Assembly: GCA_049322915.1 (NCBI GenBank)
Contig: JBMOPW010000014.1
Span: forward strand, 445,517 to 509,516
Direction of reading: 5' to 3'
From: Candidatus Zhuqueibacterota bacterium
GTDB lineage: Bacteria; Zhuqueibacterota; Zhuqueibacteria; Thermofontimicrobiales; Thermofontimicrobiaceae
Length of the DNA: 64,000 nt
Shown here one piece after another: positions 4,226-20,598 of this stretch. A program made the translations under genes and the position numbers. How positions within the stretch are numbered: the stretch's first letter is position 1; every line of letters starts with the position of its first letter. Under the pieces are notes generated by a model. That model ran no database searches and was not told where the DNA came from. It saw only the letters and a program-made list of their open reading frames with translations.

Positions 4226-5142
4226 CCATTTTCCGCTAACGGCTCTGCATTGGTCAAGGCCAGTTGCGATGCCTGAGCGAGAGACTCGCTGTCCGTGGAT
4301 AATCCGGCCAATTTTGAACTGACATTCTTTTCGAGCCAGGGGATCGGAGCGATGCCGCCAAGCGCAACAGTCCCTGACGAGATGACCTGGCCGGTCCGCT
4401 GAATCATGGCCGCGACGCTCACCAGGGCGAAATCCCACGCTCCACGTTCCTTCATTTTGATGAAGCCGCTTTTCGCGCCGGCAGGCAGGTCAGGAATGGT
4501 GATCTGAGTGAGAATATCGCCGGGCGAAAGGATATTTTCCCGTTCGACATTGATCTCCGGCAGCAGGAAGAATTGTCCCACCGGCACGGTGCGGGTTTTT
4601 CGGCCGGAGAAGTAAGTCACCGAAGCGTTGAGCGCAGCCAGCGCGACTGCCGTATCAGAGGGGTGGACAATGAAGCACGGCCCGCCGCCGATGACGCAGT
4701 GAAATTTATTGCGGCCATCCACGGCAAAGCAGGCGTCGCCGCCCCTGCGCAGACATTTGAACCCGCCGCGGTAATACCAGCAGCGGGGTCTCTGGCACAG
4801 ATTGCCGGCGAGCGTGCCGATGTTGCGTAGCTGGGGAGACGCCACTTCGCTGGCTGCTTCGGCCAATGCCGTATATTTTTCGCGGATCACCGGATGCCCA
4901 GCAATCGCCCGCAGCGATGCCAGCGCTCCGATGGTGAGGCCCCGGCCCGGTTCGTAGGTAATCGTCTCCAGCCCCGGCACGGATTTGAGATTCACCACGC
5001 GCTGTGGCGCTTCAATGCCATCTTTCATCAAACCGAGCAAGTCGGTCCCACCGGCCAGGAGCAGGCTGCTGCGCCAGTCTTCCCCGAGATTTTTATTGGC
5101 CTCTTTCAACGACCCGGGTTGAATGTATGTAAAATTTTTCAT
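4162..5142 (-). CDS. Xanthine dehydrogenase-family FAD-binding subunit (PaoB/YagS-like, with a Cys-rich 4Fe-4S insert)
   Basis: LAGGTDL, ASPQLRNIGTLAGNLCQRPRCWYYR and HPSD motifs; start at MKNFTY after GGAG. Confidence 0.92.
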   Translation of the reverse strand: MKNFTYIQPGSLKEANKNLGEDWRSSLLLAGGTDLLGLMKDGIEAPQRVVNLKSVPGLETITYEPGRGLTIGALASLRAIAGHPVIREKYTALAEAASEVASPQLRNIGTLAGNLCQRPRCWYYRGGFKCLRRGGDACFAVDGRNKFHCVIGGGPCFIVHPSDTAVALAALNASVTYFSGRKTRTVPVGQFFLLPEINVERENILSPGDILTQITIPDLPAGAKSGFIKMKERGAWDFALVSVAAMIQRTGQVISSGTVALGGIAPIPWLEKNVSSKLAGLSTDSESLAQASQLALTNAEPLAENGYKIPLARNLIKRTLGRLCEA

Positions 5143-5203
5143 GTCGCCACTCCATAAATAACGATTCAAATCAATCAGAATTTTTAGTCAGGAAAGCGCG
5201 CCT

Positions 5204-7507
5204 TTAACTGTTGGAATACAGCGCGCGAAGCACCTTATCCGGCGTGATGGGCAGGCTCCTGATCCGCACGCCGATGGCGTTATAAACCGCGTTGGCTATG
5301 GCGCCCGGCGTGGGAATCATCGCCGGTTCGCCGCAGCCTTTGACGCCGGTGCTGCTCAGCAACGAATCGCCCTTACTGACAATGATCACTTCAATTTCAG
5401 GAATGTCCTTGATGGTCGGGATTTTATAATCGTGCAAATTGTTGGTGAGCAATTTGCCGGTGGCGCCATCGATGAGGCGCTCTTCCATCAGCGCAAAGCC
5501 AATTCCCTGAATAACGCCGCCGTGGAATTGATTTTCCATGGTGGTCCGGTTGAGCACTCGGCCAATATCATGGGCAGCGACCACTTTGACCACGCGAATC
5601 CGGCCGGTTTCAGTGTCCACTTCCACATCGGCGAATTGCGCGCCGAACGTATTGGTTGTATATTTTTCCGGATTTGCCGCGCGCGCGCCAGTGGTGACCA
5701 GCACCTGTTCCCGCATTTGCCTGACAACGTCCGAGATTTTGAGTTTTTTCGAGTCATCGGATTTTAACGAGATCACGCCGCTGGCGTAGACCAACTGTTC
5801 CGCCGGCGCACTCAGAATCGCCGCTGCACCGGAGATGAGTTTGGCTTTCATTTGTTCAGCGGCATCGCGCACTGCCGGCGAAACGGACGGCGCTGTCATG
5901 CTTCCGCCGCTGGAACTGGAATAGGGCGCTGCGCCTGTGTCGCCCAGTATGACGGATATTTTATCCATGGGAATTTCCAGCACTTCAGAGGCCACCTGCG
6001 CCATGAACGTGTTGGTGCCGGTGCCGAGATCCTGGGTCCCGCAAATGACGCGAACACTGCCGTCCCGATTGAGCTTCACAGTCGCGTACGAAGGCGGCGC
6101 GCCGCCGCCCCACCAGATTTGCGTGGCCATGCCAATGCCCCGTCTCAGATGACCGACGCCCGCGCCGGCCGGCGTGTTCCGCCTATGCCAGCCGATGGCT
6201 GCTGCGCCACGCTCATACGCCTCGCGCAACTTTTTCGAAGTATACGGTGCGTTGGAAACCTGGTCGATTTCAGTATAATTTTTCAATCGAAATTGCAATG
6301 GATCCATTCCGATTTTTTCAGCCAACTCGTCGATGATGGATTCAGTCGCAAACGTGCCCTGGACATGGCCCGGCGCGCGAAACGGTCTGGCTGGCCCGGC
6401 ATTGGTGTACACGGAGTATTCTTCGGACTTCACATTGGCGCAGGAATACAGCGTGCGAAATGGCCAACTGCAACCGGCGCCGCTGGGATAAGCGCCAACC
6501 GTCCCATAGGAGTAATGGAACATGGCCGTCAACGCCCCGTCCCGCTTTGCGGCGACTTTCAATTTTTGAACCGAGTCCGGGCGGTTGCCCACAGCGAGAT
6601 TCTGTTCCTTCCTGTTCAGGGCGATTCTCACCGGCCGACCGATCTGGCGCGCTAACAGTGCAGCCATCACTGTGTATTTCCCGGCAGCGAGCTTGCTGCC
6701 AAATCCACCGCCCATGTATTTTTTGATGACGCGCACGCTGCTGCCCGGAATGCCGAGCGATTCAGCGACGGTATCGCGAACGGTGAAAATACCCTGGGTG
6801 GAATCCCACACGGTCAACTGGTCGCCGTCCCAATTGGCCACGCTGTTGTGCACTTCAGTGGGATTATGAACTTCCACCTGGGTGGTGAACGTATATTCCA
6901 CGGTGACGTCCGCTTCGGCAAAACCTTTGGCTAAATCCCCGCGTTCGTAGACATTGGGTTTGCCCTCCTGAATGTTGTTGTCTTTGTACAGTAGCGGCGC
7001 ATTGCTTTTCATGGCCTCCCCGGCGTCGATGACAAAGGGCAGGGCCTCGTAACTCACATCGATTCGTTCGATGGCTTCGTCGGCAATGGCTTCGGTTTCA
7101 GCAACCAGGCAGGCGACTTCATCGCCTTCGTAGCGCAGATGCGGGTCGAATAACTGGCTGATCCGATAGTACCAGGGTATTTTGGGGCAATTTTCATGGG
7201 TTAAAACAGCTAGCACGCCGGGCGTGTTCAAGGCCCGGGTGACATCGATTTTCAGAATTCTGGCATGGGGCAGAGGACAGCGCAGCGTTCGCGCGTGAGC
7301 CATTCGGGGCAGTTTAATATCCACTGTGTATTGGGCGGTCCCGCTGACTTTATCGTACCCGTCAATTCGGGGCATGGGTTGGCCGACGACTTTCAAGTCC
7401 GCGTCGGGACCCCATGGCTTCAATTTTTCGGTGGGAACCTCGGCCAGGGTTTCGGCCGGTCCCTCTTCAAAAAAGTAAGTACTTTTAATTATCTTTCGTT
7501 CAGGCAT
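5204..7507 (-). CDS. Xanthine dehydrogenase-family molybdopterin-binding subunit
   Basis: MGGGFGSK, FRAPG, QDLGTG and KGCGE motifs; 767 aa. Confidence 0.93.
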   Translation of the reverse strand: MPERKIIKSTYFFEEGPAETLAEVPTEKLKPWGPDADLKVVGQPMPRIDGYDKVSGTAQYTVDIKLPRMAHARTLRCPLPHARILKIDVTRALNTPGVLAVLTHENCPKIPWYYRISQLFDPHLRYEGDEVACLVAETEAIADEAIERIDVSYEALPFVIDAGEAMKSNAPLLYKDNNIQEGKPNVYERGDLAKGFAEADVTVEYTFTTQVEVHNPTEVHNSVANWDGDQLTVWDSTQGIFTVRDTVAESLGIPGSSVRVIKKYMGGGFGSKLAAGKYTVMAALLARQIGRPVRIALNRKEQNLAVGNRPDSVQKLKVAAKRDGALTAMFHYSYGTVGAYPSGAGCSWPFRTLYSCANVKSEEYSVYTNAGPARPFRAPGHVQGTFATESIIDELAEKIGMDPLQFRLKNYTEIDQVSNAPYTSKKLREAYERGAAAIGWHRRNTPAGAGVGHLRRGIGMATQIWWGGGAPPSYATVKLNRDGSVRVICGTQDLGTGTNTFMAQVASEVLEIPMDKISVILGDTGAAPYSSSSGGSMTAPSVSPAVRDAAEQMKAKLISGAAAILSAPAEQLVYASGVISLKSDDSKKLKISDVVRQMREQVLVTTGARAANPEKYTTNTFGAQFADVEVDTETGRIRVVKVVAAHDIGRVLNRTTMENQFHGGVIQGIGFALMEERLIDGATGKLLTNNLHDYKIPTIKDIPEIEVIIVSKGDSLLSSTGVKGCGEPAMIPTPGAIANAVYNAIGVRIRSLPITPDKVLRALYSNS

Positions 7508-7701
7508 AACACCTCCGGAAAAAGATTTTTCTCAATGACGAAACACGGCCATCGAAGCGGTTTGCATAATTCCATTCGGATCATCACGGGGCGCGCGCAT
7601 TGGATAGACATGAAAAAGTATTGCATTCGCATCGTCAATTTTTTAAGTAATCCCACGCAGCGAAAATTCTCAGCGGGACGGATCATTGACCAAAGTATGT
7701 C

Positions 7702-8316
7702 CTACTTGAATTTTGCGGCGGCTGCGGCCAAAACCGAATCGACAATCTTGGGGTAGGCAGCACATCGGCACAAATTCCCGCCCATCCCGTCCTGAACCTG
7801 TTCCCGCGACGGAGTGGGATTATTCATAAGGAGCGCGTGAGCCGCCATAATCTGTCCCGGCGTACAAAAACCGCATTGCAGCCCATCTTTGTCGATAAAC
7901 GCTTGCTGAATGGGATGCAGCGTTTCGCCGTTCATCAGCCCTTCGATGGTGGTCACCTCTTTTCCTGCCGCGTCCAGGGCCAACAAATGACAGGAATAGA
8001 CTGCGCTGCCATTCAACAATACGGTGCAACTGCCGCATTCACCCTGGTTGCAGGCAATTTTGGTTCCGGTCAATTGCAGCGAATCGCGGAGCACCTCGGC
8101 CAGCGTCGTCCGGGGCTCAACCATCAATTTCACGGCGCGGCCATTGACCTTGAAGGCAAGCAATTGTTTCCCATCGTGAGCGGCCTCGGCGGTCGCCAAT
8201 TGTTCGGAAATAGCCGGCAGCGAATGCACCAACACCGTGGATCCCACGACCCCGCTGCCGATGCCCTTCATAAATTTCCGCCGGGAAATGCCATCGGATT
8301 TGATTCTGTCTTTCAT
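7702..8316 (-). CDS. (2Fe-2S)-binding subunit with a twin-arginine signal (PaoA/YagT-like)
   Basis: SRRKFMK Tat motif; CNQGECGSC, QCGFC and CRC ligands; start at MKDRIK. Confidence 0.92.
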   Translation of the reverse strand: MKDRIKSDGISRRKFMKGIGSGVVGSTVLVHSLPAISEQLATAEAAHDGKQLLAFKVNGRAVKLMVEPRTTLAEVLRDSLQLTGTKIACNQGECGSCTVLLNGSAVYSCHLLALDAAGKEVTTIEGLMNGETLHPIQQAFIDKDGLQCGFCTPGQIMAAHALLMNNPTPSREQVQDGMGGNLCRCAAYPKIVDSVLAAAAAKFK

Positions 8317-8528
8317 AACAAAGTCCTTTGTAAGGTGGATTGAATGGTTACAGTGCGGTTTCTGAACCGAATGACTCCAGTGGTCGATTGAGTCGATTGA
8401 AACAAATAAAACGGACTGTTCAGATTTCAATTAAATAAAATTTGGGATAATGTCAAGTAAAAAATTGAAAGGTCCAGGGTGACTGACGACAGTCCGGCCG
8501 TGACAGCGCTTGCCCTCGGTTGGAGTCA

Positions 8529-9458
8529 TCAGCGACTGTTGGCTCTGTAATAGTCCTCGCAGACAGTGCACCGGTGGCAGGCTTTATGGCACATCAGCGT
8601 TTGCTTGAAGAATTCCTCTCCAATCTCAATAGGCGTTCGCGGCGATGCCGGCCCGGCGCCTATCCGATGGGGAGAACGCCTGGAGCGAAAGATATAGGCG
8701 TCCAGCACCTCCCTGTAATAGGACGGATTTTGCAGCGTCACCCGTCCGGCCAATTTGAGGGTATCGAAAAGACCGTTGTAGAGATGAAGATGCTGCGGAA
8801 GAATCCAACTGCCGGTCAACCGCAGCCAGGGCTTTTGGCTCAGCATGTCCAGGCACAGCGATTGCGGGTAGGGGAGTTTTGATCCCATTTCATAGAAATG
8901 CTGCGTTCGAAAAACACAGTTGGGCAGGCAGCCCTCATTGACAATGAGTCGTATTCCCCCGGAAAAGGACTCGCGAAGCAAGGTCAGGGCTGGCAAATTT
9001 CGGACGATGCGCGACGAGGCCACCAGTGTATCGAAAATACCATTGATCATAGCCAATTGATTGGGAGAAAAAATGTCCATCAGCACCGAGGCAGTGAGCC
9101 GCAGGCGCGGAATGCTTTCCCTGATATTTTTAGCGAGCGTCACATTGGATAGCGTCACGGATTGGATTCGATAGGAATTGCATAGGTTTTTCAGCGTCTC
9201 AATGATGGCCGGGGTCATTTCTTCTACCGGACGCGGGAAGACGACGGGATTAATCAGCACCGACAGCCGGAAAGGAGAGGCTTCCAAAAATTCCTGCAAC
9301 TGGTGCGTCGGTTGCATCGGTCGACCGGAAGGAACATTTTCCATCAGGATGGGAAAATAGACTTCATGAATATAGCGGTCGTAGTGCTCGGCGAGATTTT
9401 TCCAGAACGAAAGAGGCTGATCGATGTAAGGGATGACCCAGATTGTTTCGCGTTTCAT
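8529..9458 (-). CDS. U32-family ('peptidase U32'-like) Fe-S protein
   Basis: LTASV, IVNEGCLPNC, LC, KLAGR and C-terminal CxxxCxxCxxC. The ATG overlaps the upstream stop (ATGA). Confidence 0.75.
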   Translation of the reverse strand: MKRETIWVIPYIDQPLSFWKNLAEHYDRYIHEVYFPILMENVPSGRPMQPTHQLQEFLEASPFRLSVLINPVVFPRPVEEMTPAIIETLKNLCNSYRIQSVTLSNVTLAKNIRESIPRLRLTASVLMDIFSPNQLAMINGIFDTLVASSRIVRNLPALTLLRESFSGGIRLIVNEGCLPNCVFRTQHFYEMGSKLPYPQSLCLDMLSQKPWLRLTGSWILPQHLHLYNGLFDTLKLAGRVTLQNPSYYREVLDAYIFRSRRSPHRIGAGPASPRTPIEIGEEFFKQTLMCHKACHRCTVCEDYYRANSR

Positions 9459-10438
9459 GACCATGGAGATTCCGCAATTGTTATTCTTTGTGACGAAGAA
9501 AAACGCATGAGTTTCTGAGCAGTACATCCTCCTGTGCAAGCGCCTGTGCGCTTGTAATCGCATAGAGCGCACCATTTGAAAATACCAACCGCCTGGAATT
9601 TTGAAAGCGTTTTTTGAAAGTGAGCGCGAACTGCGTCGGCTGTGAGGGTTGCCGTCAGCGGCAGATTGATGAGACGGCCAAGTGGGTAGCAGGCCACGAT
9701 GCTCCCATCCGGGAGAATGTCCGGGATCGGTTCGCAATGAGTCCCGGGCTTGGGGTCCAGTCCCAACTCGCTCAGATGCTCGCCGTTGAACATGCACGGA
9801 ACAAAGCCGCAGTCCAGGTTTATTTTTACGGACTCAGAGCGCGCGACTCTGGCGAAGTCAGCGATTCGCTGGCCAATGAGGCTGTAATGCTTGGGCAGCA
9901 AACAAGTGTTTTTATAATCAATGCAGGGATGAGCCAGACCCAGTCGTACCTGTTTTTTCAAATTGAAATCCCGAATGAGATTCAGAAGAAAATTCAGCCG
10001 GGCGCTTTTGTGATAAATATTCAACCCCGGCATGACGTTCCGATTCAAGGCTGATAGCGTTTTCTCCAATCCGGACTTCGCTTCGGGCAATTCATCGGTC
10101 CAGTGAGTGATGTTGAGAATAACGGTAATGATATCCTCGGGCAGGGCGCTGAGATATTCTAGCACGGCTTCGGGCATGAGTCCATTGGAGAAGAGCCGAA
10201 TCGGCCGGCCGGTTTGTTGCGCCATTTCCAGAAAATGAATAATCTGCGGATGCAATGTGGGCTCTCCGCCCAGAATGCGAACCTGTCCAATGTTGGACCG
10301 CATCACAAAATCCAGAGCAGATTGAAAAATGTTCAGCGGCATGTGGCCATGATTCCTGGCACCGGTTTTATATTCTCCCTGGGTGAAACAGTAGCGGCAA
10401 TGGAGATTGCATTCCGATGTAATTGCAATATTAGCCAT
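9455..10438 (-). CDS. Radical SAM / SPASM-like protein
   Basis: CNLHCRYC, GGEP and C-terminal CALC...CTGGC. Confidence 0.9.
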   Translation of the reverse strand: MANIAITSECNLHCRYCFTQGEYKTGARNHGHMPLNIFQSALDFVMRSNIGQVRILGGEPTLHPQIIHFLEMAQQTGRPIRLFSNGLMPEAVLEYLSALPEDIITVILNITHWTDELPEAKSGLEKTLSALNRNVMPGLNIYHKSARLNFLLNLIRDFNLKKQVRLGLAHPCIDYKNTCLLPKHYSLIGQRIADFARVARSESVKINLDCGFVPCMFNGEHLSELGLDPKPGTHCEPIPDILPDGSIVACYPLGRLINLPLTATLTADAVRAHFQKTLSKFQAVGIFKWCALCDYKRTGACTGGCTAQKLMRFSSSQRITIAESPWS

Positions 10439-10703
10439 GTTGTTGCGTCGGAATAAGGATATCGTTTTTCACCAGAACATCGATGGTGTCGTGGATTATT
10501 CTACGAGCGTGAGATTCAGTCACGAGCGCGATCTTCGCCATCATGCGAACCAGGGCAGCTTCCGGCACCTGCTTCAATATCAAATCGAAGACGGCGGCCA
10601 TGGGATAATCCAGGGCCAGTTGACATTCGTTCACCCTTTCGATGAACTGAATGTGCCTGAGATCGACACAATAGAAATAATTGGGATTCAGCCGATAGGT
10701 CAT
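10431..10703 (-). CDS. Small PqqD/RRE-like protein
   Basis: 90 aa, three-strand then helical pattern, LDYPMAAVFDLI and a C-terminal LVKNDILI ending; overlaps both neighbours. Confidence 0.55.
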   Translation of the reverse strand: MTYRLNPNYFYCVDLRHIQFIERVNECQLALDYPMAAVFDLILKQVPEAALVRMMAKIALVTESHARRIIHDTIDVLVKNDILIPTQQHG

Positions 10704-12076
10704 TTTTCTTCCTTAAAATGAAAAAGGGTGTCTGATGCGTGCAGCGACAAGGCTTGCAAGCTGGGCGGATCGGCTAACAGTTCATCGACGCGACCTCTCA
10801 GCCCCAGATTTTCCAATAGGCAGCAGACGGTGATGATTCGGGTATGAGTGCAAAAGTCGATATATTTCGCTGATGAGCCGGGATAGGTGCAATTGACATG
10901 ACAATTGCCAGCGCAGCTAAATCGGCAGAAACAATTTGCACAACGCGGCTTATTGTAAACCAGATTTCGGAGGTGTTTCATTTTTTCGAAATCGATTTCC
11001 ACGTGACCCTGGGGTGACACATGGCCCACGCTCAGGTCGAGATTTTTACTTGCCCAGTCGCTTGCATGCAAATAGCAACTGGCTACCGTTCCATCCGGGT
11101 GAACGATGAGCACGTCCCGGCCAACAGGGCAGGATGTGGTCTGTACCGTGTCCAATGAAACAGGCGCATACACCGGTTCGATCATGTGATCCCGTAGAAT
11201 TCGCCAGCTTCGAATGCAGGCTCCGGCAAACTCGTACGGATCCGGCGGGAATAAGCCCGCAGCGGCGGATCGGGAGTTCGGTGTGAGCGTTTCGAAATTG
11301 ACTTTGTCCGGCTGAAATTCCGTGCAGAACCACTGCGCCATGGCCTCCATCTCGTTCACAGAGTCCGACGTTATGCAACATCGTATGGCGAGGTCGACAC
11401 TGCTGTCGGATAAATACCTGATGGTCTCAGCCACTTGGTCGTAGCTGCCCTGATGGGAGTTCATGGGGCGCATCCTGTCGTGATATTTCTGAAAACCATC
11501 GAACGAGACCACCACCCGGTCGAAATAATCTCTGACGAACCGGCGCTGCCTTTCTGAGAAGCAGCCATTGGTTAGCACTTCAAAGTGGGGGATGAGCCCA
11601 ATTTTTGACGCCACGAACCGTGTATGGTGTACAGCAATGTCGATGATTTCAGGCTCTGCAAACGGTTCGCCGCCGAAAAACTGAATGGATAACACTCTTC
11701 TGTTGCTATTCCAGGTTAGCTCTGCGTAATAATCGATTGCCGCGATCATTCTGTCCGGGTCGATGGTTTGCTCTCTACCGTAATCCTCCCCAAAATCACA
11801 GTAAATGCAGGACATATTGCAGCGCCGGCTGGGGATGATACCCAGGAATTGAGGATCCAGCCCACCGGTCCGATCTGGATTACGAGTCGCCGGCGTCCGT
11901 AGCTGTTCAATCAACGAAGTCAATTCGCCATGAGCAGGTGAGTCCTTGCCGTTCTGCAATCCTCGTTTCAAGAGGTCAACGGCGCTTTCATTGAGCAAAG
12001 CAGTGATGCCGTGCAGTGGCGCAAACAGCAGGAATGAATCCAGCGCCGGCACGACAAAAATCGAATTGCCACGCAT
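10700..12076 (-). CDS. Radical SAM / SPASM protein with N-terminal extension
   Basis: CNMSCIYC, FFGGEP, SFDG and SPASM CPVG..C..CANC..CAGNC. Start MRGNS lies 1 bp after the upstream stop. Confidence 0.92.
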   Translation of the reverse strand: MRGNSIFVVPALDSFLLFAPLHGITALLNESAVDLLKRGLQNGKDSPAHGELTSLIEQLRTPATRNPDRTGGLDPQFLGIIPSRRCNMSCIYCDFGEDYGREQTIDPDRMIAAIDYYAELTWNSNRRVLSIQFFGGEPFAEPEIIDIAVHHTRFVASKIGLIPHFEVLTNGCFSERQRRFVRDYFDRVVVSFDGFQKYHDRMRPMNSHQGSYDQVAETIRYLSDSSVDLAIRCCITSDSVNEMEAMAQWFCTEFQPDKVNFETLTPNSRSAAAGLFPPDPYEFAGACIRSWRILRDHMIEPVYAPVSLDTVQTTSCPVGRDVLIVHPDGTVASCYLHASDWASKNLDLSVGHVSPQGHVEIDFEKMKHLRNLVYNKPRCANCFCRFSCAGNCHVNCTYPGSSAKYIDFCTHTRIITVCCLLENLGLRGRVDELLADPPSLQALSLHASDTLFHFKEEK

Positions 12077-12077
12077 G

Positions 12078-13427
12078 TCAACGGATGATTTTTTCACCAT
12101 GCCACACGCTGCCTGATTTTTCGACATAGTACAATAGCAATTCCCTTGTGAGTTCCCGATTCAATTGACATCTGGGACTATATCCATTGCGCCCGGAATC
12201 GCCATCATGAAACGCCTTGGGCGGACAATCTCCGGCGCAGTGATAATAACAGAAACATCCTTTGGCCTTGCATTGGGCCTTGCGCGCTTCAATTTTATCC
12301 GCTAACTTTTTCTGTTTCGCTTCGTTGATGTGCAGCGCGCCGTTCTCATCCAGCCTGCCGTAGAAAAACAGGTCGCTGAGAGCATGCTCCCTGTCATAGA
12401 CCTCGTAACATGCGGTGAGCTCGCTGTCATGATTCACAATGAGCGCAACGTCCCGAGCCAGACAGAATTGATCGGTGACAATCCAGGGTCGTGCGCCGGA
12501 ATAATACAGATGGCGCTCATGAGAATTGGCAATCTCCAGAGCCTTGGTGAAGACGCTGGCAAAGGCCCGATAGTTTTTCAAATAGTTATTTTTCAAGTGA
12601 GCGCGGCCGTGACTGAATACCGGCTCCACTTGAAAGACATTGCAGCGGGACTCTCGGCACAAGAAATCGATACTCGCCGGAAGGGATTCGATGGAATCGT
12701 CCATGACGCTCAGGCGAATGCCGTAAGGAATATTCCGCTCATCGATTGCGTTCATCGTCTCAAAAACGCGGTCGAAGCTGGGCTTTCCGGCAGCAGCCGG
12801 TCGCTGCCGATTTTGGATTTCCGGCAGACCGTCGCAGGACAGTGAAACTTCGGAGATGCCCAAATCCAGAATTTGCTCTGCTTCGGTCTTCTTCAAATAG
12901 CCGTTGGTGGTGAGTGAAATTTTGCAGGGCAGCGCTTTTCCCCCGGCATAGCGAATCAGTTCGAACAACTGCTTTTTAACAACCGTGGGCTCGCCGCCGC
13001 CGTGAATGCTCAGCGTAAAGCTATCTTTCCTCTGCTCCGTGGCATTTCGGCACGCAATGTCAATGGCTTTTTTCCCCGTCTCCACTGGCATCACTTTGCC
13101 TGTGCGATTCCCTGACGAGGCGTAACAATAAACGCACTGCAAATTGCAGGCAGTCGTCAGCAGCAGCACGCAGGTGGTTGGCCTTTCAGCCAGCGTTTTG
13201 TGGACTCCACGGAGCGTTCGTCTGTTGGGTGAAAAATAACCGATCTGTTCAAGGATAGTGATTGCCTCTGGTTGGACTCCCCGACGCTCATGAGTTCCGT
13301 GCACGTCAGTGAGAACTTCTTTCATGGCTTGATTGGCAATGAACGCTAAGGGCTTGAACGGAAGATAGACAAGATACTTATCCTCGACCGGGATGAAAAA
13401 GATCGGATTGTCGTTTCTATCGACCAA
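12078..13427 (-). CDS. Radical SAM / SPASM protein with N-terminal extension
   Basis: CNLQCVYC, HGGGEP and C-terminal CFCYYHCAGDC; TTG start after GGAG. Confidence 0.92.
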   Translation of the reverse strand: MVDRNDNPIFFIPVEDKYLVYLPFKPLAFIANQAMKEVLTDVHGTHERRGVQPEAITILEQIGYFSPNRRTLRGVHKTLAERPTTCVLLLTTACNLQCVYCYASSGNRTGKVMPVETGKKAIDIACRNATEQRKDSFTLSIHGGGEPTVVKKQLFELIRYAGGKALPCKISLTTNGYLKKTEAEQILDLGISEVSLSCDGLPEIQNRQRPAAAGKPSFDRVFETMNAIDERNIPYGIRLSVMDDSIESLPASIDFLCRESRCNVFQVEPVFSHGRAHLKNNYLKNYRAFASVFTKALEIANSHERHLYYSGARPWIVTDQFCLARDVALIVNHDSELTACYEVYDREHALSDLFFYGRLDENGALHINEAKQKKLADKIEARKAQCKAKGCFCYYHCAGDCPPKAFHDGDSGRNGYSPRCQLNRELTRELLLYYVEKSGSVWHGEKIIR

Positions 13428-13440
13428 TGGGCTATCTCCA

Positions 13441-14673
13441 TTAATTTGGATACCAATACCCGCAACTGGAGCAACTTGATGTGCTGACCGTATCGCATGT
13501 GCAGACCGTGTTGCAGCTACAGATGGTGTCGCACGTGCAGGCAAAACCACCAGGATAAGTCTCATCGTAAACTTCTTCCGTCAGGGCAGGGTCATGCAGT
13601 GACTTGATGAACTTGCCACTTAAATCCCACAGATAAATGTGGCGATCATCTCCGGCAGATGCGAACATGGAATTATCTGGACTAAAAACGACGCTAGTCA
13701 CCCACCCCGAATGAGCTTGCAAAGTGTTCAGCAGGGAACAAGCGGGAAAGCTTCTGATCTGAAAAGACGAATCACCGCCGCTGATGACCATCGCGTTGCT
13801 GTATTTATTGATGTCAAAAGTTTGGATGAAAGGGGAGTTCGTATGAAATGATTTGTACAGAATGCCTTCAGGCAACAGCCAGACATCGATGAGGTCACCG
13901 ATAAAACCGGATGAGACCAGGAACATGCCATCCGGACTGAAAGCAAGAAGCGCCGCTGAATAGGTGAGATTAATTGTTTTTTTGAGATTGCCGTTTGGCA
14001 ATCCCCACAATTTGATGGTCTGGTCACTACTTCCTGATGCTATTGTCGCACCATCCGGGCTGATGGCGACTGCGTTGATGTAAACCAAATGTCCCACGAG
14101 CGAGTTAATCTCTGTATTATCGCGCAGGCTCCATAAATTCACAGTTAGCATATGTCCGGCCGTCGCCAGCATGGAACTGTCAGGACTGATAGCAAAGTCA
14201 TTGCCGATGAACCTGCTCCTCATGACGCCGTCGGGCAAGTTCCAAATAGTGATGATACTATCTGTCGCCCTCGAAGCAAGCATGGTACCATCCCGACTGT
14301 AAGCCACTTTTTTTACAGCATAATAGGGTGATGCGTCAATTGTCCGCACCAGACTACCATCGGATACGCGCCACAGTTTGACTTTTCTGTCGTCGCTACC
14401 AGACGCCAGCATTGTCGCGTCGGGGCTGAAAGCGACTGACGAAATGGATGAGCTATGAGCAAACTGAATGACTTTTTTCCGCTGCGCTTCCGTTTCCTTC
14501 GAGGATGTTGGATCTTCACAACCGCTGAGAGTTGAGCCCAAAGCAATACCTGATGTGATTGCCGAGCCAAGCCCGAGAAAATTTCGTCGCGACAGAGATT
14601 TGTCGTCCTTGGTTTTTTGGATGGCGTAAATCTCCGGTTCTTCAGGCGATTTCAATCGTTGTTTTTTCATCAT
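13441..14673 (-). CDS. Tat lipoprotein with WD40 repeats and a Cys-rich C-terminal tail (..CGYWYPN)
   Basis: SRRNFLG Tat motif, LSGC lipobox, about 7 WD40 repeats (FSPD..LASGSDD..KLW), tail CTCDTICSCNTVCTCDTV. Confidence 0.9.
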   Translation of the reverse strand: MMKKQRLKSPEEPEIYAIQKTKDDKSLSRRNFLGLGSAITSGIALGSTLSGCEDPTSSKETEAQRKKVIQFAHSSSISSVAFSPDATMLASGSDDRKVKLWRVSDGSLVRTIDASPYYAVKKVAYSRDGTMLASRATDSIITIWNLPDGVMRSRFIGNDFAISPDSSMLATAGHMLTVNLWSLRDNTEINSLVGHLVYINAVAISPDGATIASGSSDQTIKLWGLPNGNLKKTINLTYSAALLAFSPDGMFLVSSGFIGDLIDVWLLPEGILYKSFHTNSPFIQTFDINKYSNAMVISGGDSSFQIRSFPACSLLNTLQAHSGWVTSVVFSPDNSMFASAGDDRHIYLWDLSGKFIKSLHDPALTEEVYDETYPGGFACTCDTICSCNTVCTCDTVSTSSCSSCGYWYPN

Positions 14674-14819: not shown

Positions 14820-16484
14820 TCAATTTGGATACCAGTAACCGCAACTGGCGCAACTGCTGCAACTGGAACAACTGCTGCAGCTTGAACAGCTACTGCATGA
14901 AGTGCCGATGGTGACTGTATCGCACACACAGGTAATTTCACCGGTCAAAGAAGTGCCTGTGGAAATGGTGATGGTATCGCACGTGCACACAAGATTGCAG
15001 GTGCACACAGAATTGCTGAAAACTGGCTCTCGCTGTTTGACGGTGCGGCAATCGATTTTTGTCACCAGCGCCGGATCGTAGAGGCACCAGTATGGATTGC
15101 CGGTTGGCATTGTCCAGAGCTTGAGCGTGAGGTCCCAGGCGCCGGACGCCAGCATTGCGCCGTCAGGAGTGAAGGCAATCGTCATGACTGTGTAAGAATG
15201 TCCGGAAAGGCTTTTTATTAATTTTCCATCCGGCAGGCTCCACAGCATAATTACGGTATCCAGCCCGGCGGACGCCAGCATTTTCCCATCCGGGCTGACG
15301 GCGATCGTGATAACGGAAAAGCTGTGTCCCTGCAATGTTTGCAGCAAAGTGAATTTTAATTGATCGTCAGATGCTGAAACAGGGTTTTTCTTGTCGCACC
15401 CGGAAATCACCGAGGCAACGGCGGCGGTCGCGCCGATGAGCAACGCCGTATCGCTCGCTTTTCGTCCTGAGCCATGGCTAACCAATTCATTTTGAAGTGG
15501 AATTGGGGATGGTGGCTCACCGCTGATGCGGTCGGAATGATTGCGCTGGCTTCCATGAAGCGCTATAAATGCTGTCAGCGCAGCGACCTTATATTCATCC
15601 GATTGTTTTTCAATGAGCAATTCGCCTGGTGGGTTTTTCGTGACGAAATTCTCTCCGGTCCCAGAAATGCTCCATACTTTGATTGTTGTATCCCCGCTGC
15701 CGGAGAACAGGCGTGTGCCGTCCGGGCTGAACTTGACCGATGAGACGTATGCTGCATGGCCATCCAGAGTTTTCAGCAATTTCCCATCTGGGATTCTCCA
15801 GATTTTGATGGTTTCATCGACACTGCCAGAAGCCAGCAGCGTGCCATCCGGGCTGAAACAGACTGTACTGACGGTTTCAGTATGGCTTTTGAATGATTCC
15901 AGCAATTTGCCATCAGGCAGGCTCCACAACTTAATCGTTTTATCCACGCTGCCGGAAGCCAGTAGCGTGCCATCCGGGCTAACTGCCAGACAATAGATAT
16001 CGCCAACATGGCCGCTTAGCGTTTTCAGTTGCACCCCATCGGATACGCGCCATAATTTAATGAACGTGCCTATCCCCCCTGAGACCAGGATCGTCCCATC
16101 GGGGCTGAACGCCAGACAGTAAATTTCCGATGAGCTATCTTCGATCGTCCGGCTCAAATCTCCATTCGGCAGATTCCAAAATTTGATTTTTTTATCGTTG
16201 CTTCCGGATGCCAATAGTTTTCCGTCATGGCTGATGACGACAGAGTAAATTCCATTTGTATGGGCAGTTACATTATTACATAGTTCACTGGAGAGTTTAC
16301 CACCTTCTCCCACTGTTTGGGCCATCGCACGTTTTGCCCCATTTGCGCCAAGCATCACACCAGCGCCAATCCCCAGACCTAATCCCACAAAATTTCGCCG
16401 GCTGATACCATAATCGCTTTTGCTTTTTTGAAGTGCAAATATCTGTGGCGCTTCTCTCTTGCGGTTTCGATTTTTTTTATTCAT
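14820..16484 (-). CDS. Tat-exported WD40 protein with a Cys-rich C-terminal tail (..CGYWYPN)
   Basis: SRRNFVG Tat motif and AMA cleavage-like site, 7 WD40 repeats (5+2), tail with CxC units and SSC repeats. Confidence 0.9.
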   Translation of the reverse strand: MNKKNRNRKREAPQIFALQKSKSDYGISRRNFVGLGLGIGAGVMLGANGAKRAMAQTVGEGGKLSSELCNNVTAHTNGIYSVVISHDGKLLASGSNDKKIKFWNLPNGDLSRTIEDSSSEIYCLAFSPDGTILVSGGIGTFIKLWRVSDGVQLKTLSGHVGDIYCLAVSPDGTLLASGSVDKTIKLWSLPDGKLLESFKSHTETVSTVCFSPDGTLLASGSVDETIKIWRIPDGKLLKTLDGHAAYVSSVKFSPDGTRLFSGSGDTTIKVWSISGTGENFVTKNPPGELLIEKQSDEYKVAALTAFIALHGSQRNHSDRISGEPPSPIPLQNELVSHGSGRKASDTALLIGATAAVASVISGCDKKNPVSASDDQLKFTLLQTLQGHSFSVITIAVSPDGKMLASAGLDTVIMLWSLPDGKLIKSLSGHSYTVMTIAFTPDGAMLASGAWDLTLKLWTMPTGNPYWCLYDPALVTKIDCRTVKQREPVFSNSVCTCNLVCTCDTITISTGTSLTGEITCVCDTVTIGTSCSSCSSCSSCSSCSSCASCGYWYPN

Positions 16485-16504: not shown

Positions 16505-16921
16505 TTATGGTTCGTAATGCACATCATTCGCAGGAATACATATTCCCTGTTGCACGAACTGCAACGCAATTTCCCGGACACGCTGAAACCCTTCATCAAT
16601 GGGAAGTTTGTACTCCGATGAAAAATTCATACTAATCAAGTGAATACCGAGTCCCTGTTTGATATGGGATAGAAAAAAGACTTCTGGTGATCCTTTACAA
16701 TACTGACCAAGCGGTTCGTCGTTTTTATTGACAATAAAAATATCACCGGCGTTCTCTTTAATAGCAACATTGTCCCGCACACGGAATTTGAGTTGTCGGA
16801 ATTTGTTCTCATCCAGCTTCCATAAATCCGTCAGTTTAAAATGACGATGCCCGTCGCATTCTTCTTTTATCATATAAATATGGGACAGTAACTCTTTGAA
16901 AAAATAACGTCGTTGAGTCAT
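16505..16921 (-). CDS. Hypothetical protein; C-terminal part PqqD/RRE-like
   Basis: AAGGAAGGA RBS; C-terminal pattern ISMNFSSEYKL..RVREIALQFVQQGICIP resembles PqqD helices. Confidence 0.55.
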   Translation of the reverse strand: MTQRRYFFKELLSHIYMIKEECDGHRHFKLTDLWKLDENKFRQLKFRVRDNVAIKENAGDIFIVNKNDEPLGQYCKGSPEVFFLSHIKQGLGIHLISMNFSSEYKLPIDEGFQRVREIALQFVQQGICIPANDVHYEP

Positions 16922-16978: not shown

Positions 16979-17836
16979 TTATTCAAGCCGGGTGATGAAT
17001 TGGAAATTGGACAACCTGCCCCATTTCTCTTTCATGCACGTATCCGAAATCGATTGCGGCCGAGGCAGGAGACGGTCATTCATGTCATAGTAATAGCCTT
17101 GAATATTATTGATCCGCGCGCAACCGGCGAGTGTGCCGTCCGGATTCACTGTAACGCCATTGAAAAATGCGCCGCACGCGTAATTGAATCCGCAGCAGTT
17201 CGGCGCATGCCCCGGATATATGCCTAATTCCAGGCTGAGCCTTTCGTAGTTGTATTTAAACTCTTTCCACTCGAAATAGTCGAGCATCTGGTCCGGATTC
17301 CCCACGTAGGGAGTGACATTGTTGAACAACGAATTGGTATTTTTAGCGACGGCCAGCACTTCACCGTAACAATCTTTGTTCAAAAGCGATACCGTGTAAC
17401 TGATCCAATGGTTCAGGCCGGCGTCGTTCAGCATCGTCAATGCTTCGACGGCTTTGGTATAGACGCCCTGACCGCGAATGATGTCATTGATTTTTTCACT
17501 CCCGTCCAGCGAAATCTGAACGCACAGCTTTTCTTTGTACGGCAACAGAAGCGTCACATATTTATAAATCAATGTACCATTGCTCAATATGGAAACCCGA
17601 TCGAATTGAGAAAAGCAATACTCTAAAAATTGAAAAAACTCCGGGTGCAGTAATGGTTCGCCGCCACTTAAATAAATGACAGACATGTTCTGTCTGTTGC
17701 GCAGAACGTGTTTTATGGTTTCAAGTATATCTTTGAACAGGAGGAAATCCATTGACTGGGCTCTATCATGCTTTCGCGCGTAGCACGAAATGCATTTCAG
17801 GTTGCACGTTTCCAGTAATCGTAAATGAAACCACAT
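16979..17836 (-). CDS. Radical SAM protein (Twitch-like C-terminus)
   Basis: CNLKCISC, SGGEP, QISLDG and CGA..VNPDG..GC. Confidence 0.9.
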   Translation of the reverse strand: MWFHLRLLETCNLKCISCYARKHDRAQSMDFLLFKDILETIKHVLRNRQNMSVIYLSGGEPLLHPEFFQFLEYCFSQFDRVSILSNGTLIYKYVTLLLPYKEKLCVQISLDGSEKINDIIRGQGVYTKAVEALTMLNDAGLNHWISYTVSLLNKDCYGEVLAVAKNTNSLFNNVTPYVGNPDQMLDYFEWKEFKYNYERLSLELGIYPGHAPNCCGFNYACGAFFNGVTVNPDGTLAGCARINNIQGYYYDMNDRLLPRPQSISDTCMKEKWGRLSNFQFITRLE

Positions 17837-17845
17837 GGTTCGCCT

Positions 17846-19000
17846 TTACTTGGGGGTGACAGCGACAATGGCGCCTTTTTTGAAAATCGAAACAGGGGCA
17901 AGCGTTTTCAATGTCAAACCGTGAAAGCCATTGATTGAAATCTGCCGCTTGCTCCACTTGTCCGGATGAATGAATTCTATCCTGCCTGAGTCATCGTACA
18001 CAAGGCACGTTTCCAGATATTCGTCATCAATAATTTTTTCAAACGGTTGTCTAAGCAAGGCGATTATGTTCTGTCGTCGTTTTTTCACCTGCATCCGTTT
18101 ATTGATTGTCGAGCAGAAATTGAAGTTCAGCCCGCTGCCAGTGTCGGCTAACGCAGTGAGTATTTCTGTGACGACACCGGCGCTATCCATTGAAATTTCC
18201 GTGATATGTCCATCTTCAAACATGATTTTCCTGAAATGCTCAGCGTTCAAGCATGCGGAATGCGATTGGCTCTCTTTCATCAACTCGTGCACATTGAGAA
18301 ATTTTACGCCGGCGTCTTCGTAGCCCGGAATGGCCATTAAAAGTGCGGCTTTATCTCTCAGCAACAATGGGATTTCGACGGTAATGTTCCTGATTTTCTT
18401 TGCTGCATATTCCATAATTCGCATGACATGAATGTCATCGTATCCGGTAGCGGCTGTGTTGAACCTGATTTCGTCAAGCGCCAGATCGGAAAATGAATCG
18501 ACCTGGCGCTCCGTGAGTTGAACGCCATTGGTATAGAGCCAAAAATAATTATCTGGAAATTGACTTTTGAAAAATGTCAGCAGATCGGCGGTCCTTCGGA
18601 ACTTGCATAACGGCTCGCCACCAGAGAAGCTGATCCCCCTGATATGAACGCGCTGGTAATTAGTGGCGATCTGTCGTTTATCCCGACCCAGCGCTGAAAG
18701 CGGTACACCCGGCCTGTTCTTTAACGTGCTGATGCAAAATTCGCAGTCGAGGTTGCACGTCGGTGTAACGAACAGACAATCCCAATGACCGCTCTTGCAC
18801 AGCATGCACCCGGGCGACAGCTCCCCTCGGCAAATAGTCTGGCTATCACGATCCACCCGAATTCCAGGGAACTGCCGGGCGATGCTGTCCTGATATTCGC
18901 ACCAGATGGCTTGCAGTTCAGTGATATTGGTTTGTTGTGTCGGAGCGCTCGCTAACAGACTCGCTACAAACGCCGGAATTGTACACTTCGTGTTTTTCAT
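17846..19000 (-). CDS. Radical SAM protein with an extra N-terminal CxxC (COG2108-like)
   Basis: GELSPGCMLC, CNLDCEFC, SGGEP, LYTNG and LDEIRF motifs. Confidence 0.85.
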   Translation of the reverse strand: MKNTKCTIPAFVASLLASAPTQQTNITELQAIWCEYQDSIARQFPGIRVDRDSQTICRGELSPGCMLCKSGHWDCLFVTPTCNLDCEFCISTLKNRPGVPLSALGRDKRQIATNYQRVHIRGISFSGGEPLCKFRRTADLLTFFKSQFPDNYFWLYTNGVQLTERQVDSFSDLALDEIRFNTAATGYDDIHVMRIMEYAAKKIRNITVEIPLLLRDKAALLMAIPGYEDAGVKFLNVHELMKESQSHSACLNAEHFRKIMFEDGHITEISMDSAGVVTEILTALADTGSGLNFNFCSTINKRMQVKKRRQNIIALLRQPFEKIIDDEYLETCLVYDDSGRIEFIHPDKWSKRQISINGFHGLTLKTLAPVSIFKKGAIVAVTPK

Positions 19001-20066
19001 ATTCAAATAACAACCGGTTGATCCGGCACCGCAAACTCTGTGTGACCGGGTAAGCGGCTTCGTGGCTCAATCTGCACAGATCAGGGCAGCCTCTCACGCA
19101 TGAGTCCTGCACTTCGCACCTTACGCATTCCAGGTAAAGTTTGTGGGCGGAGCATTCTAAATCCCGGACCTTGTTAGTATTGATTAAAAATCGATTTGCT
19201 TCTACATCGTAATGCCCAATGGCAAACAAGCTTTCAATGGCTTCATCGTCTTTGAATAAACAGGCAGAGGCAATCCCGCGCCGTCCAATGAATAGGACAT
19301 TTTTAAAAAAATTGCAATACGGTCCATGCTGTTGATTGCTGCGATACCCGGAGTAATTGATCATTCCACCGGCGCGGGACACTATTTTTTTTGCTCTGAG
19401 AAAATTGAACACAAAGATATCCGGTTCAGGATAGAGTGCATTCCCGACACTCAAGCGGTACACGGGTTCCACCTGAAATTCGCGCAAGCCCAGGTCATCG
19501 ATGAAATGTGTCATGATTGGCGCCAGCAGATGTGCATTGTGCCTGGTTACAGTGATCCTGATGACAGGTATTTTCCGATTTTCGCTGAGAATGCGTAACG
19601 CAGCCATCACGCTCGGGTAAGTACCGGTTCCCGAAGTATGCCGTCTCTGAAAGTCGTGCGCATTTCGGTCACCGTCGAGAGAGAGACAGATACGATCGAA
19701 ATGGTTGGCGATCCAGGAATACTTATAATCCTCCATGCACCCATTGCTAGTAATGAATGAAAATAATGACAATCCTCTTTGCCGTAGCATGGCTGCAATG
19801 AATTCATGTATTTTTTTCAACAGATCAAACTGAAGGAGCGGTTCGCCGCTGCCCTGGAATCCCAGATAGAAAGGTTTCCGTTTGTTCAGGCAGTTGTCGA
19901 CAATCAACTCTGCCGCACATTGGATGCAGTTCAGAAAATCGTTCTCGTGCAGGTAGTGGTCGCAGGAGTGGTGATTCTGGGGCCGGGAATAACAGTAAAG
20001 GCAATCCAGGTTGCACTCCGAGCCGAGGCTAATTGTAAGACAGAGCGGTGAAAAAAGCATGTCCAT
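18918..20066 (-). CDS. Radical SAM / SPASM protein
   Basis: CNLDCLYC, GSGEP, SLDG and CVRC..CVRGCPDLC. Confidence 0.88.
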   Translation of the reverse strand: MDMLFSPLCLTISLGSECNLDCLYCYSRPQNHHSCDHYLHENDFLNCIQCAAELIVDNCLNKRKPFYLGFQGSGEPLLQFDLLKKIHEFIAAMLRQRGLSLFSFITSNGCMEDYKYSWIANHFDRICLSLDGDRNAHDFQRRHTSGTGTYPSVMAALRILSENRKIPVIRITVTRHNAHLLAPIMTHFIDDLGLREFQVEPVYRLSVGNALYPEPDIFVFNFLRAKKIVSRAGGMINYSGYRSNQQHGPYCNFFKNVLFIGRRGIASACLFKDDEAIESLFAIGHYDVEANRFLINTNKVRDLECSAHKLYLECVRCEVQDSCVRGCPDLCRLSHEAAYPVTQSLRCRINRLLFEYEKHEVYNSGVCSESVSERSDTTNQYH

Positions 20067-20598
20067 ATAAACAGTCAGGTAATTTTTTGTCCAACCTGTG
20101 CTAAAAACAGTGGAGGCGCGTGAGTTCAGGAGAAAGATTTTTTCAGGGTGTTAGGTCAATTGGATTAGTCATTGGCAGATGACTGTCTGACAGGTTTGAC
20201 ATTGTGTTGTTTCAGAAATCATTTATTCCGGTTTTGAGTTCACTCAGCAGGGATGATTGGAAAGTGAAGAGGCTGTCGGATCAGGTCGCCTATGTGCGTG
20301 AACTATCGTGGAGGTAATTCGAATGGATGGAGGCCGGCAACCTGTACAGCAACGCGTTATGCATCCTGCTATCTCATGACAAGATAATAAATATTATCAA
20401 AATGTCAATTGGAATTTTTGAAAGCGGAAGATTCTTCCAGTTCGATTGGCGTTAGGGGTATTGATGCGTGCGTGTCTTCCGCGCGCGGGGTCCGCTCATG
20501 AAAAAATCAGAACAGCGACGACGAGACATTTAGCTGCCAGAAGCAGAAAAGAGCGACACGCGCGACTTAAAAAAATTGAGGTCGTAAAAATTTTTCAC

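Follow-up and report, generated by a model that had tools for sequence, protein, structure and literature searches.

Why should a WD40 propeller protein end in a tail of regularly spaced cysteines, and does the serine-cysteine run within that tail have an enzyme of its own? These questions are raised by WD2, a gene on a 64,000-nucleotide stretch of DNA from Candidatus Zhuqueibacterota bacterium (GenBank assembly GCA_049322915.1, contig JBMOPW010000014.1, positions 445,517 to 509,516), which we call the window. We consider it probable that the tail is the core of a protein-sized substrate resembling those of the peptides made by the ribosome and modified after translation (RiPPs), and that a system of several radical S-adenosylmethionine (radical SAM, here rSAM) enzymes would cross-link it through thioethers before export by the twin-arginine translocation (Tat) pathway.

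Anatomy and conservation of the tail

The tail and the proteins that carry it comprise the following features of the window:

14820..16484, minus strand: WD2, 554 amino acids (aa), with a leader and twin-arginine signal, then a WD40 propeller interrupted by an insertion, then the Cys-rich tail.
16314..16484, minus strand: N-terminus of WD2, residues 1-57, with the leader APQIFALQK, ISRRNFVGLG, a hydrophobic region and AMA-Q.
14823..15083, minus strand: WD2 tail, residues 468-554, the last 87 residues.
14970..15005, minus strand: CxC units 1 and 2, CTCNLVCTCDTI, residues 494-505.
14913..14930, minus strand: CxC unit 3, CVCDTV, residues 519-524.
14841..14900, minus strand: (x-S-C)7 run, residues 529-548, described by its codons, Tandem Repeats Finder, a substitution count and its copy number in relatives.
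14820..14840, minus strand: terminal GYWYPN and stop codon.
13441..14673, minus strand: WD1, 410 aa, with a leader, a twin-arginine signal and lipobox LSGC, a WD40 domain of seven-blade size, and a tail.
13444-13599, minus strand: WD1 tail, ending in SSCSSCGYWYPN.

The translation of WD2 (14820-16484, minus strand) ends in LYDPALVTKIDCRTVKQREPVFSNSVCTCNLVCTCDTITISTGTSLTGEITCVCDTVTIGTSCSSCSSCSSCSSCSSCASCGYWYPN; over the last 87 residues, a LYDPAL hinge is followed by CTCNLVCTCDTI, by CVCDTV, and then by TSCSSCSSCSSCSSCSSCASCGYWYPN and the stop codon. Its three CxC units (CTCN, CTCD and CVCD) were recognized in a first-pass annotation of the sequence, and translation bears this out; each unit holds a Cys-X-X-Asp/Asn motif of the donor-acceptor type. 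The run consists of SC, five copies of SSC and one ASC, with seven Cys at a period of 3 (residues 530, 533, 536, 539, 542, 545 and 548). The first-pass annotation had seen this run but transcribed it one SSC unit too short, with six Cys. WD1, in which an LHDPAL hinge is followed further on by CTCDTICSCNTVCTCDTVSTSSCSSCGYWYPN and a stop codon, also has three CxC units. As the same annotation had remarked, the DPAL hinge and the CGYWYPN end are common to the two proteins and the SSC copy number is not: WD1 has just two xSC units (SSCSSC), against the seven Cys of WD2. A six-frame regular-expression scan of the 6.25-Mb genome found no third tail of this type.

For the wider family, we chose 73 distinct tails, fragments included, by the end pattern [YFW]W[YHRF]Px and by uniqueness over the last 60 residues; W at position −4 and P at −2 are therefore fixed by the selection. 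These tails hold 372 CxC units, with D or N as the next residue in 315, V or I at +3 in 317 and T between the two Cys in 192, and the unit consensus is C-T-C-[D/N]-T-[V/I]. Y stands at −5 in all 73 tails, and N stands at −1 in 57. Ahead of the terminal motif, the spacer that follows the last CxC unit contains no Cys in 49 of the 73 tails, where it is rich in Gly, Ser or Tyr and 4 to 30 residues long; it has one or two Cys in 12 and at least three in another 12, the seven of WD2 being the maximum. Where a spacer Cys occurs, the residue before it is Ser in 56 of 69 cases and the residue two before is S, T, A or G in 65 of 69. Two kinds of motif, CxC[D/N] and xSC, exist in these tails, as had been proposed. 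The first-pass annotation had also held that homologues lacking the SSC run would speak against its reading of the run as a maintained repeat. In WD2 orthologues the run is present, with 7, 5, 5, 5, 4, 4, 4, 3, 2 and 1 Cys; most of the family, with its Cys-free spacers, lacks it.

WD1 and WD2 share their N-terminal architecture as well. Both begin with a conserved motif, xPEIF/YAxxK, which is followed by SRRNF[VL]GLG and a hydrophobic stretch. Judged by eye, these are twin-arginine signals of the S/T-R-R-x-F-L-K type, with a hydrophobic region and a cleavage site or lipobox (ISRRNFVGLG...AMA-Q in WD2 and LSRRNFLGLG...LSGC in WD1). The leader and the RR motif were found in 52 of 77 tail-bearing open reading frames (ORFs), the rest being mostly fragments, and the genome encodes TatC (PF00902, 246 bits, above the cut-off). 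Both proteins match Pfam WD40, WD2 with an E value of 1.7e-74 over seven stretches. AlphaFold2, run on WD2 with 43 aligned relatives, gave a pLDDT score (predicted local distance difference test) of >95 for residues 62-275 and 377-470. The insertion at 276-376 was modelled with low confidence, and tail residues 478-554 had a pLDDT of 30-38. In this model the tail is without a confident fold, which is consistent with, but does not prove, a flexible, substrate-like tail.

A further feature of WD2 is an internal hydrophobic stretch at residues ~347-372 (15369-15446, minus strand), which ends in a lipobox-like ISGC-DKKNP and is present in all orthologues. It resembles the signal region and lipobox of WD1-type proteins, and one fragment in our collection (P0007) begins exactly there. 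WD2 looks as if a five-blade module had been fused to a lipoprotein-type module of two blades plus tail.

Radical SAM genes beside the tail and their proposed action

WD2 and WD1 lie in a same-strand series of genes in the order rSAM_F, rSAM_E, rSAM_D, a 138-aa protein, WD2, WD1, rSAM_A, rSAM_B, a 90-aa ORF, rSAM_C and a 310-aa protein:

18918..20066, minus strand: rSAM_F, radical SAM protein with a SPASM-type Cys cluster and without an N-terminal extension.
17846..19006, minus strand: rSAM_E, radical SAM protein without SPASM, with an N-terminal Cys cluster.
16979..17836, minus strand: rSAM_D, short radical SAM protein of 285 aa with a partial C-terminal Cys motif.
16505..16921, minus strand: stand-alone, PqqD-like RiPP recognition element (RRE) as predicted from its model, 138 aa.
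12078..13565, minus strand: rSAM_A, radical SAM/SPASM protein with an N-terminal extension of ~130 aa.
10700..12127, minus strand: rSAM_B, radical SAM/SPASM protein with an N-terminal extension of ~95 aa.
10431..10703, minus strand: 90-aa ORF of no family, between rSAM_B and rSAM_C.
9455..10438, minus strand: rSAM_C, radical SAM/SPASM protein, fused to a U32-like protein in many other loci.
8529..9461, minus strand: divergent protein of putative Peptidase_U32 fold, 310 aa, ending in CHKACHRCTVC.

All six rSAM genes encode CX3CX2C, and SPASM-type Cys clusters are present in rSAM_A, B, C and F; the Pfam SPASM model is significant for rSAM_B only (1.8e-5). At its longest, the rSAM_A ORF shares 125 nucleotides (13441-13565) with the end of WD1; its true start is probably further downstream, because homologues align only from residue ~47-55. 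None of the window rSAMs reached an NCBIfam equivalog cut-off. The PapB model gave 89.7, 104.9 and 96.2 bits for rSAM_A, B and F (cut-off, 340), and the SCIFF model gave 79.4, 92.4 and 76.3 bits (cut-off, 425). The top NCBIfam match of rSAM_A was CefB, with 89.9 bits against a cut-off of 600 and a lead of 0.2 bits over PapB. For rSAM_A, B and F, most of the closest similarities in NCBIfam and the PDB are to thioether maturases, namely, PapB, SCIFF/CteB, the QhpD type and, for rSAM_A, SkfB. The nearest solved relative of rSAM_A is CteB (5wgg, 1.3e-13), and that of rSAM_D is SkfB (6efn, 4.9e-9).

The 138-aa protein matched no Pfam family at an E value of ≤10, the PqqD model included. Its AlphaFold2 model (pLDDT 82) has strands followed by three helices, in accord with the winged helix-turn-helix of RREs (a three-stranded sheet and three helices), and Foldseek matched it in the PDB to a lasso B1 protein (6jx3_B; E value, 6.9e-4; template modeling [TM] score by target, 0.83) and further to TbiB1, PqqD and the PbtF RRE (5v1v_A, 5sxy and 8t19). 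In the Atlas it has a feature score of 0.92 to PqqD clusters, with a structure TM of 0.68. As modelled, the protein folds as an RRE, and it is predicted to bind leaders. Its own N-terminus, MTQRRYFFK, in which M1, R4, R5, F7 and F8 are invariant in nine homologues, is twin-arginine-like with no hydrophobic region after it, in a protein expected to bind Tat-signal-bearing substrates. The 310-aa protein scored below the gathering threshold of the Pfam U32 model (PF01136; E value, 0.092; 12.5 bits versus 22.4) and has an Atlas structure TM of 0.87-0.88 to clusters that carry PF01136.

The association of tail and enzymes recurs elsewhere. A search with the tail only found 6 close relatives, and a profile of 8 tails found 36 representatives at an E value of ≤0.001 among 1.84 billion proteins. 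Scanning one genome per species for the tail gave 22 loci in Bacteroidales, Opitutaceae, Planctomycetia, Nitrospiraceae, Acidobacteriota, Anaerolineae, Cloacimonas and others. With 36 matches and 22 loci, chance does not account for the tail. The flanks of 21 of the 22 loci encode one or more homologues of the window rSAMs; by type, rSAM_A was found in 18, rSAM_B in 16, rSAM_F in 15 (plus a fused form in L021) and the U32-like protein in 14. It is common for a locus to hold two to four tail-bearing WD proteins in tandem, and one metagenome locus (L038) has exactly the gene order of the window, with three substrates. The RRE family, searched with a profile of nine members, has divergent members in 14 of 20 system-bearing genomes and 16 of the 22 loci. 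A single-sequence search (5 of 167 genomes of the phylum) and a word-based one (6 homologues) had made this protein appear specific to the clade with SSC runs, a view that the nine-member profile overturned.

Several loci encode fused enzymes, which link the members of the set to one another. rSAM_C is joined to the U32-like protein in ORFs of 661-731 aa, rSAM_F is joined to a further rSAM domain in ORFs of 895-945 aa, and one ORF of 1,582 aa combines C, the U32-like protein, F and a further rSAM domain. The fused ORFs are uninterrupted (L021:5934-10682, L010:10478-13315, L004:2434-4629 and others). Compared with the window rSAMs by phmmer, the second rSAM domain of the long F fusions gave no match.

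The leader is not confined to large WD proteins. Small precursors of 133-166 aa (L013:4037-4438, L015:4149-4559 and L002:2793-3293) have the same leader motif and a Cys-rich tail with no WD40 domain; they end in HYWYPC or TYWYPN, and two of them come shortly after an additional paralogue of rSAM_A.

From the anatomy and conservation of the tail, its gene neighbourhood, the RRE fold and the selection pattern on the run, we infer a chemistry, an order of events and a route of export. WD1 and WD2 each carry an N-terminal leader (xPEIFAxxK) with a twin-arginine signal, then a WD40 passenger and the tail. In the cytoplasm, the leader would be bound by the stand-alone RRE and probably also by the N-terminal extensions of rSAM_A and rSAM_B. 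The radical SAM/SPASM enzymes would then cross-link the tail, most likely by Cys thioethers of the ranthionine or sactionine kind, and the U32-like partner of rSAM_C may add a further step. The finished protein would leave through Tat, WD1 as a lipoprotein.

Comparison with known systems

The closest tested analogue is CrpA/CrpC of Methanococcus voltae, published in 2026 (PMC13692751). In that system, an rSAM/SPASM enzyme of TIGR04463, which has an RRE, forms ranthionine thioethers within the repeated C-terminal part of a Cys-rich protein; a C-X-X-Q/D motif is tied there to rSAM thioethers, and the N-terminus of CrpA is leader-like. The two systems have in common a protein-sized substrate with a leader-like N-terminus and a C-terminal, repeated Cys region of the C-X-X-D/Q type, an rSAM/SPASM maturase and an RRE, and a Cys-rich region that is modelled with low confidence. 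The features that mark a CrpA-type substrate recur here as the leader motif in 52 of 77 ORFs and as D/N after 315 of 372 CxC units. Unlike CrpC, the window enzymes fall outside TIGR04463 (64.4 bits for rSAM_A and 68.9 for rSAM_B versus 525), and, whereas CrpA is described with a single enzyme, the window has six rSAM genes and a U32-like protein. The WD substrates further differ from CrpA in the twin-arginine signal, the WD40 passenger, the six-residue CxC[D/N] units and the invariant YWYPN end. Another parallel is offered by the DAG-RiPPs made by ChrH-type MNIO enzymes, for which PMC13056109 describes modification of the C-termini of >30-kDa signal-peptide proteins and a lipoprotein pathway. 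The modification that we propose would likewise affect the C-termini of large signal-bearing proteins, and WD1 has a lipobox; the enzymes here are radical SAM proteins, unlike the MNIO enzymes of that description, and NCBIfam and Pfam scans of the cluster proteins found no MNIO gene.

The NCBIfam families of periodic-Cys precursors (the Cys-every-fifth CefA/CefB, the CXXX repeat and the ACGX repeat) resemble the window system in the regular Cys spacing of the core and in having a SPASM maturase. The period here is different, at 3 (xSC) or 6 (CxC[D/N]xx), the match of rSAM_A to CefB is far below the cut-off, as given above, and no NCBIfam model matches the tail itself. Maturation of ranthipeptides and SCIFF peptides by PapB and CteB offers SPASM Cys clusters and a Cys donor near an acceptor of the Asp/Asn/Thr type, both of which have counterparts here. 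Unlike PapB and CteB, the window enzymes score far below the equivalog cut-offs and occur as several paralogues per locus. Known ranthipeptide and SCIFF precursors are short peptides, whereas the putative substrates here are exported proteins of 410 and 554 aa, with precursors of 133-166 aa in other loci. In the QhpC/QhpD system of quinohemoprotein amine dehydrogenase, an rSAM/SPASM enzyme makes Cys-Asp/Glu thioethers in a polypeptide that is eventually periplasmic. The corresponding model, TIGR03906, matches rSAM_A, B and F at 56-69 bits, below its cut-off of 453; the locus lacks dehydrogenase subunits and a cysteine tryptophylquinone context, and the tail motifs differ.

To our knowledge, only a handful of full-size proteins have had enzymatic thioether cross-links validated, among them CrpA and, earlier, QhpC. 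If our reading is correct, thioether chemistry would reach exported proteins with folded passenger domains across many bacterial phyla and would involve an enzyme set of unusual size. Literature searches on the motif strings, and on radical SAM enzymes together with WD40, Tat or RiPP terms, turned up no published description of the tail or the system, in a literature from which most subscription journals were missing; the list of bacterial CrpA-like proteins in Supplemental Data set 1 of PMC13692751 could include relatives.

The serine-cysteine run and competing readings

On sequence grounds, a separate enzyme for the SSC run is a reasonable hypothesis, with rSAM_D as the candidate. In its full form, in which the CxC[D/N] units would be served by rSAM_A, B, C and F and the (xSC)n run by a dedicated rSAM_D recruited via the adjacent RRE, we regard this division of labour as possible but doubtful. 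Orthologues of rSAM_D (65-73% identity) were found only in the window and in three other loci (L003 of genome G036, L024 of genome G126, and L038). Three of these four D-positive loci have known tails, and each of the three holds a tail with at least two xSC units. Among 20 other system-bearing genomes (those behind loci L001-L022), the only full-length rSAM_D match came from the L003 genome, a positive control; in two others, core-only matches of 69-72 bits fell in unrelated large ORFs. rSAM_D has no RRE of its own and adjoins the stand-alone RRE gene, and the protein-level constraint on the run described below also fits a dedicated enzyme. On the other side, all D-positive loci belong to one clade and so count as a single evolutionary event at the most. 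Members of the RRE family occur across the system and not in this clade alone, which leaves rSAM_D as the only clade-specific component. Small precursors with CSTCSTC or CSTC runs (L015_4149 and L013_4037) occur in D-negative genomes, and genome G078 has an S-rich spacer with one Cys, with no rSAM_D found in its fragmented assembly (91% complete, 980 contigs). One tail in the D-positive locus L003 has, before the terminal motif, a Ser-rich stretch (SSSG) that is free of Cys.

A more inclusive proposal, which we put forward tentatively and hold to be somewhat improbable as a whole, is that a widespread, so far undescribed machine of five to seven rSAMs, an RRE and a U32-like protein cross-links the Cys-rich tails of Tat-exported propellers and that the (xSC)n module and rSAM_D were gained as a pair in this lineage. 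Were it true, a core motif and its enzyme would have been added together to an existing protein-modifying pathway. WD1 and WD2 provide a natural experiment, as two substrates of one operon with a common hinge, CxC units and terminal motif and with two versus seven xSC units. Because of this contrast, and because rSAM_D is present only where such runs occur, the pairing of enzyme and motif is directly testable.

The run could instead be a slippage-prone, low-complexity linker of drifting length, whose Cys have no role beyond spacing the terminal motif from the CxC units; we think this rather unlikely. The codons of the run are mixed (TCA, AGT, AGC and TCC for Ser; TGC and TGT for Cys), as the first-pass annotation had stated in arguing that the run is not a fresh slippage repeat. 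The codons have indeed diverged, but the run still registers as a DNA repeat in Tandem Repeats Finder, with a period of 18, 3.2 copies and 84% matches (14841-14897), and also calls a period of 9, so that the run is best described as an old, diverged tandem repeat and not as a nonrepeat. Both periods favour the linker reading, and so do the copy number of 1 to 7 among close relatives and the 49 of 73 tails in which a Cys-free, Gly/Ser/Tyr-rich stretch of widely differing length takes the place of the run. The substitutions within the run point elsewhere. Its three 18-nucleotide units differ at six sites, five of them synonymous third positions and the sixth a change from Ser to Ala; under neutrality, the probability of at least five synonymous changes in six is 0.0004-0.008 for kappa values of 1-8. 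Cys recurs at every third position, with Ser ahead of most spacer Cys (56 of 69). In all 10 clade tails for which DNA was available, the final xSC unit ahead of GYWYPN is retained, with synonymous changes; the last eight codons (SCGYWYPN) differ synonymously at five positions and contain a single replacement, Y to F.

Taken together, the synonymous excess, the Ser before Cys and the conserved final codons indicate an old repeat that is held to a small-Ser-Cys pattern and is free in length, in agreement with the earlier claim that the run is kept at the protein level. The run expands and contracts in steps of 9 or 18 nucleotides, with selection holding the small-Ser-Cys pattern, and is a lineage-specific, Cys-bearing version of the usual Gly/Ser/Tyr-rich linker rather than a family-wide element. 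Among contigs of two sequencing runs, one full-length identical contig lies in a run (X1) that may be the source of this DNA, with no indel within the xSC run of WD2; as contigs drop rare variants, this match is uninformative on copy-number heterogeneity. Sequencing run X1 also has a 260-nucleotide contig (depth of 3.8 versus 82.5 for the main contig) that matches 14851-14882 of the xSC run and then diverges into a different GYWYPN-stop tail end, and thus represents a low-abundance relative with the same tail type in the sample.

That the tail is instead a metal- or Fe-S-binding or redox-active Cys domain, not cross-linked, with the rSAMs serving cofactor assembly or another target, is improbable: CxC and CxxC are common metal-binding motifs and Tat exports folded, cofactor-bearing proteins, but the RRE and conserved leader point to peptide-directed modification, the units conserve Asp/Asn at +1 and Val/Ile at +3, residues that mere Cys ligation would not call for, small leader-plus-core precursors exist with no passenger domain, and the tail has no confident predicted fold.

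Several observations weigh against cross-linking of the tail before Tat export, which we nevertheless favour. The CxC and CxxC motifs double as classic metal ligands, and cofactor-loaded proteins are frequent Tat cargo. The reaction type of the window rSAMs is extrapolated, since they reach no equivalog cut-off, and the low pLDDT of the tail may stem from the shallow alignment of 43 sequences and not from true disorder. The invariant aromatic end could be the real site of modification, and the internal hydrophobic, lipobox-like segment of WD2 could alter its topology. In a same-genus genome (G124, 94% complete), these queries recovered neither the tail nor the RRE, the U32-like protein or rSAM_D, and the role of the system is therefore accessory. 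With this result, and with tail profile matches in 2 of 167 genomes of the phylum, the cluster appears as a patchy accessory; it is probably a transferred unit.

Some further features of the region touch the system less directly. By tblastn, the 90-aa ORF between rSAM_B and rSAM_C has counterparts in the same place in L038, L041, L042 and L012, with weaker ones in L017, L011 and L001. It has no significant Pfam match, hhalign linked it to the RRE profile at a probability of just 9.7%, and its C-terminus, LVKNDILIP, resembles LVKQxICIPAN of the RRE family. Promoter and terminator scans of the region gave too little enrichment for use; a consensus scan did mark one promoter-like site upstream of rSAM_F, with 10 of 12 matches, for which the evidence is weak because such sites are no commoner in the region than in shuffles:

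20381..20408, minus strand: promoter-like site TTGACA-16-TATCTT.

Directly downstream of the cluster (4162-8430, minus strand) lie three genes of a molybdoenzyme of the xanthine dehydrogenase or PaoABC-like type, the 2Fe-2S subunit of which (7702-8430) has a twin-arginine-like signal, SRRKFMKG.

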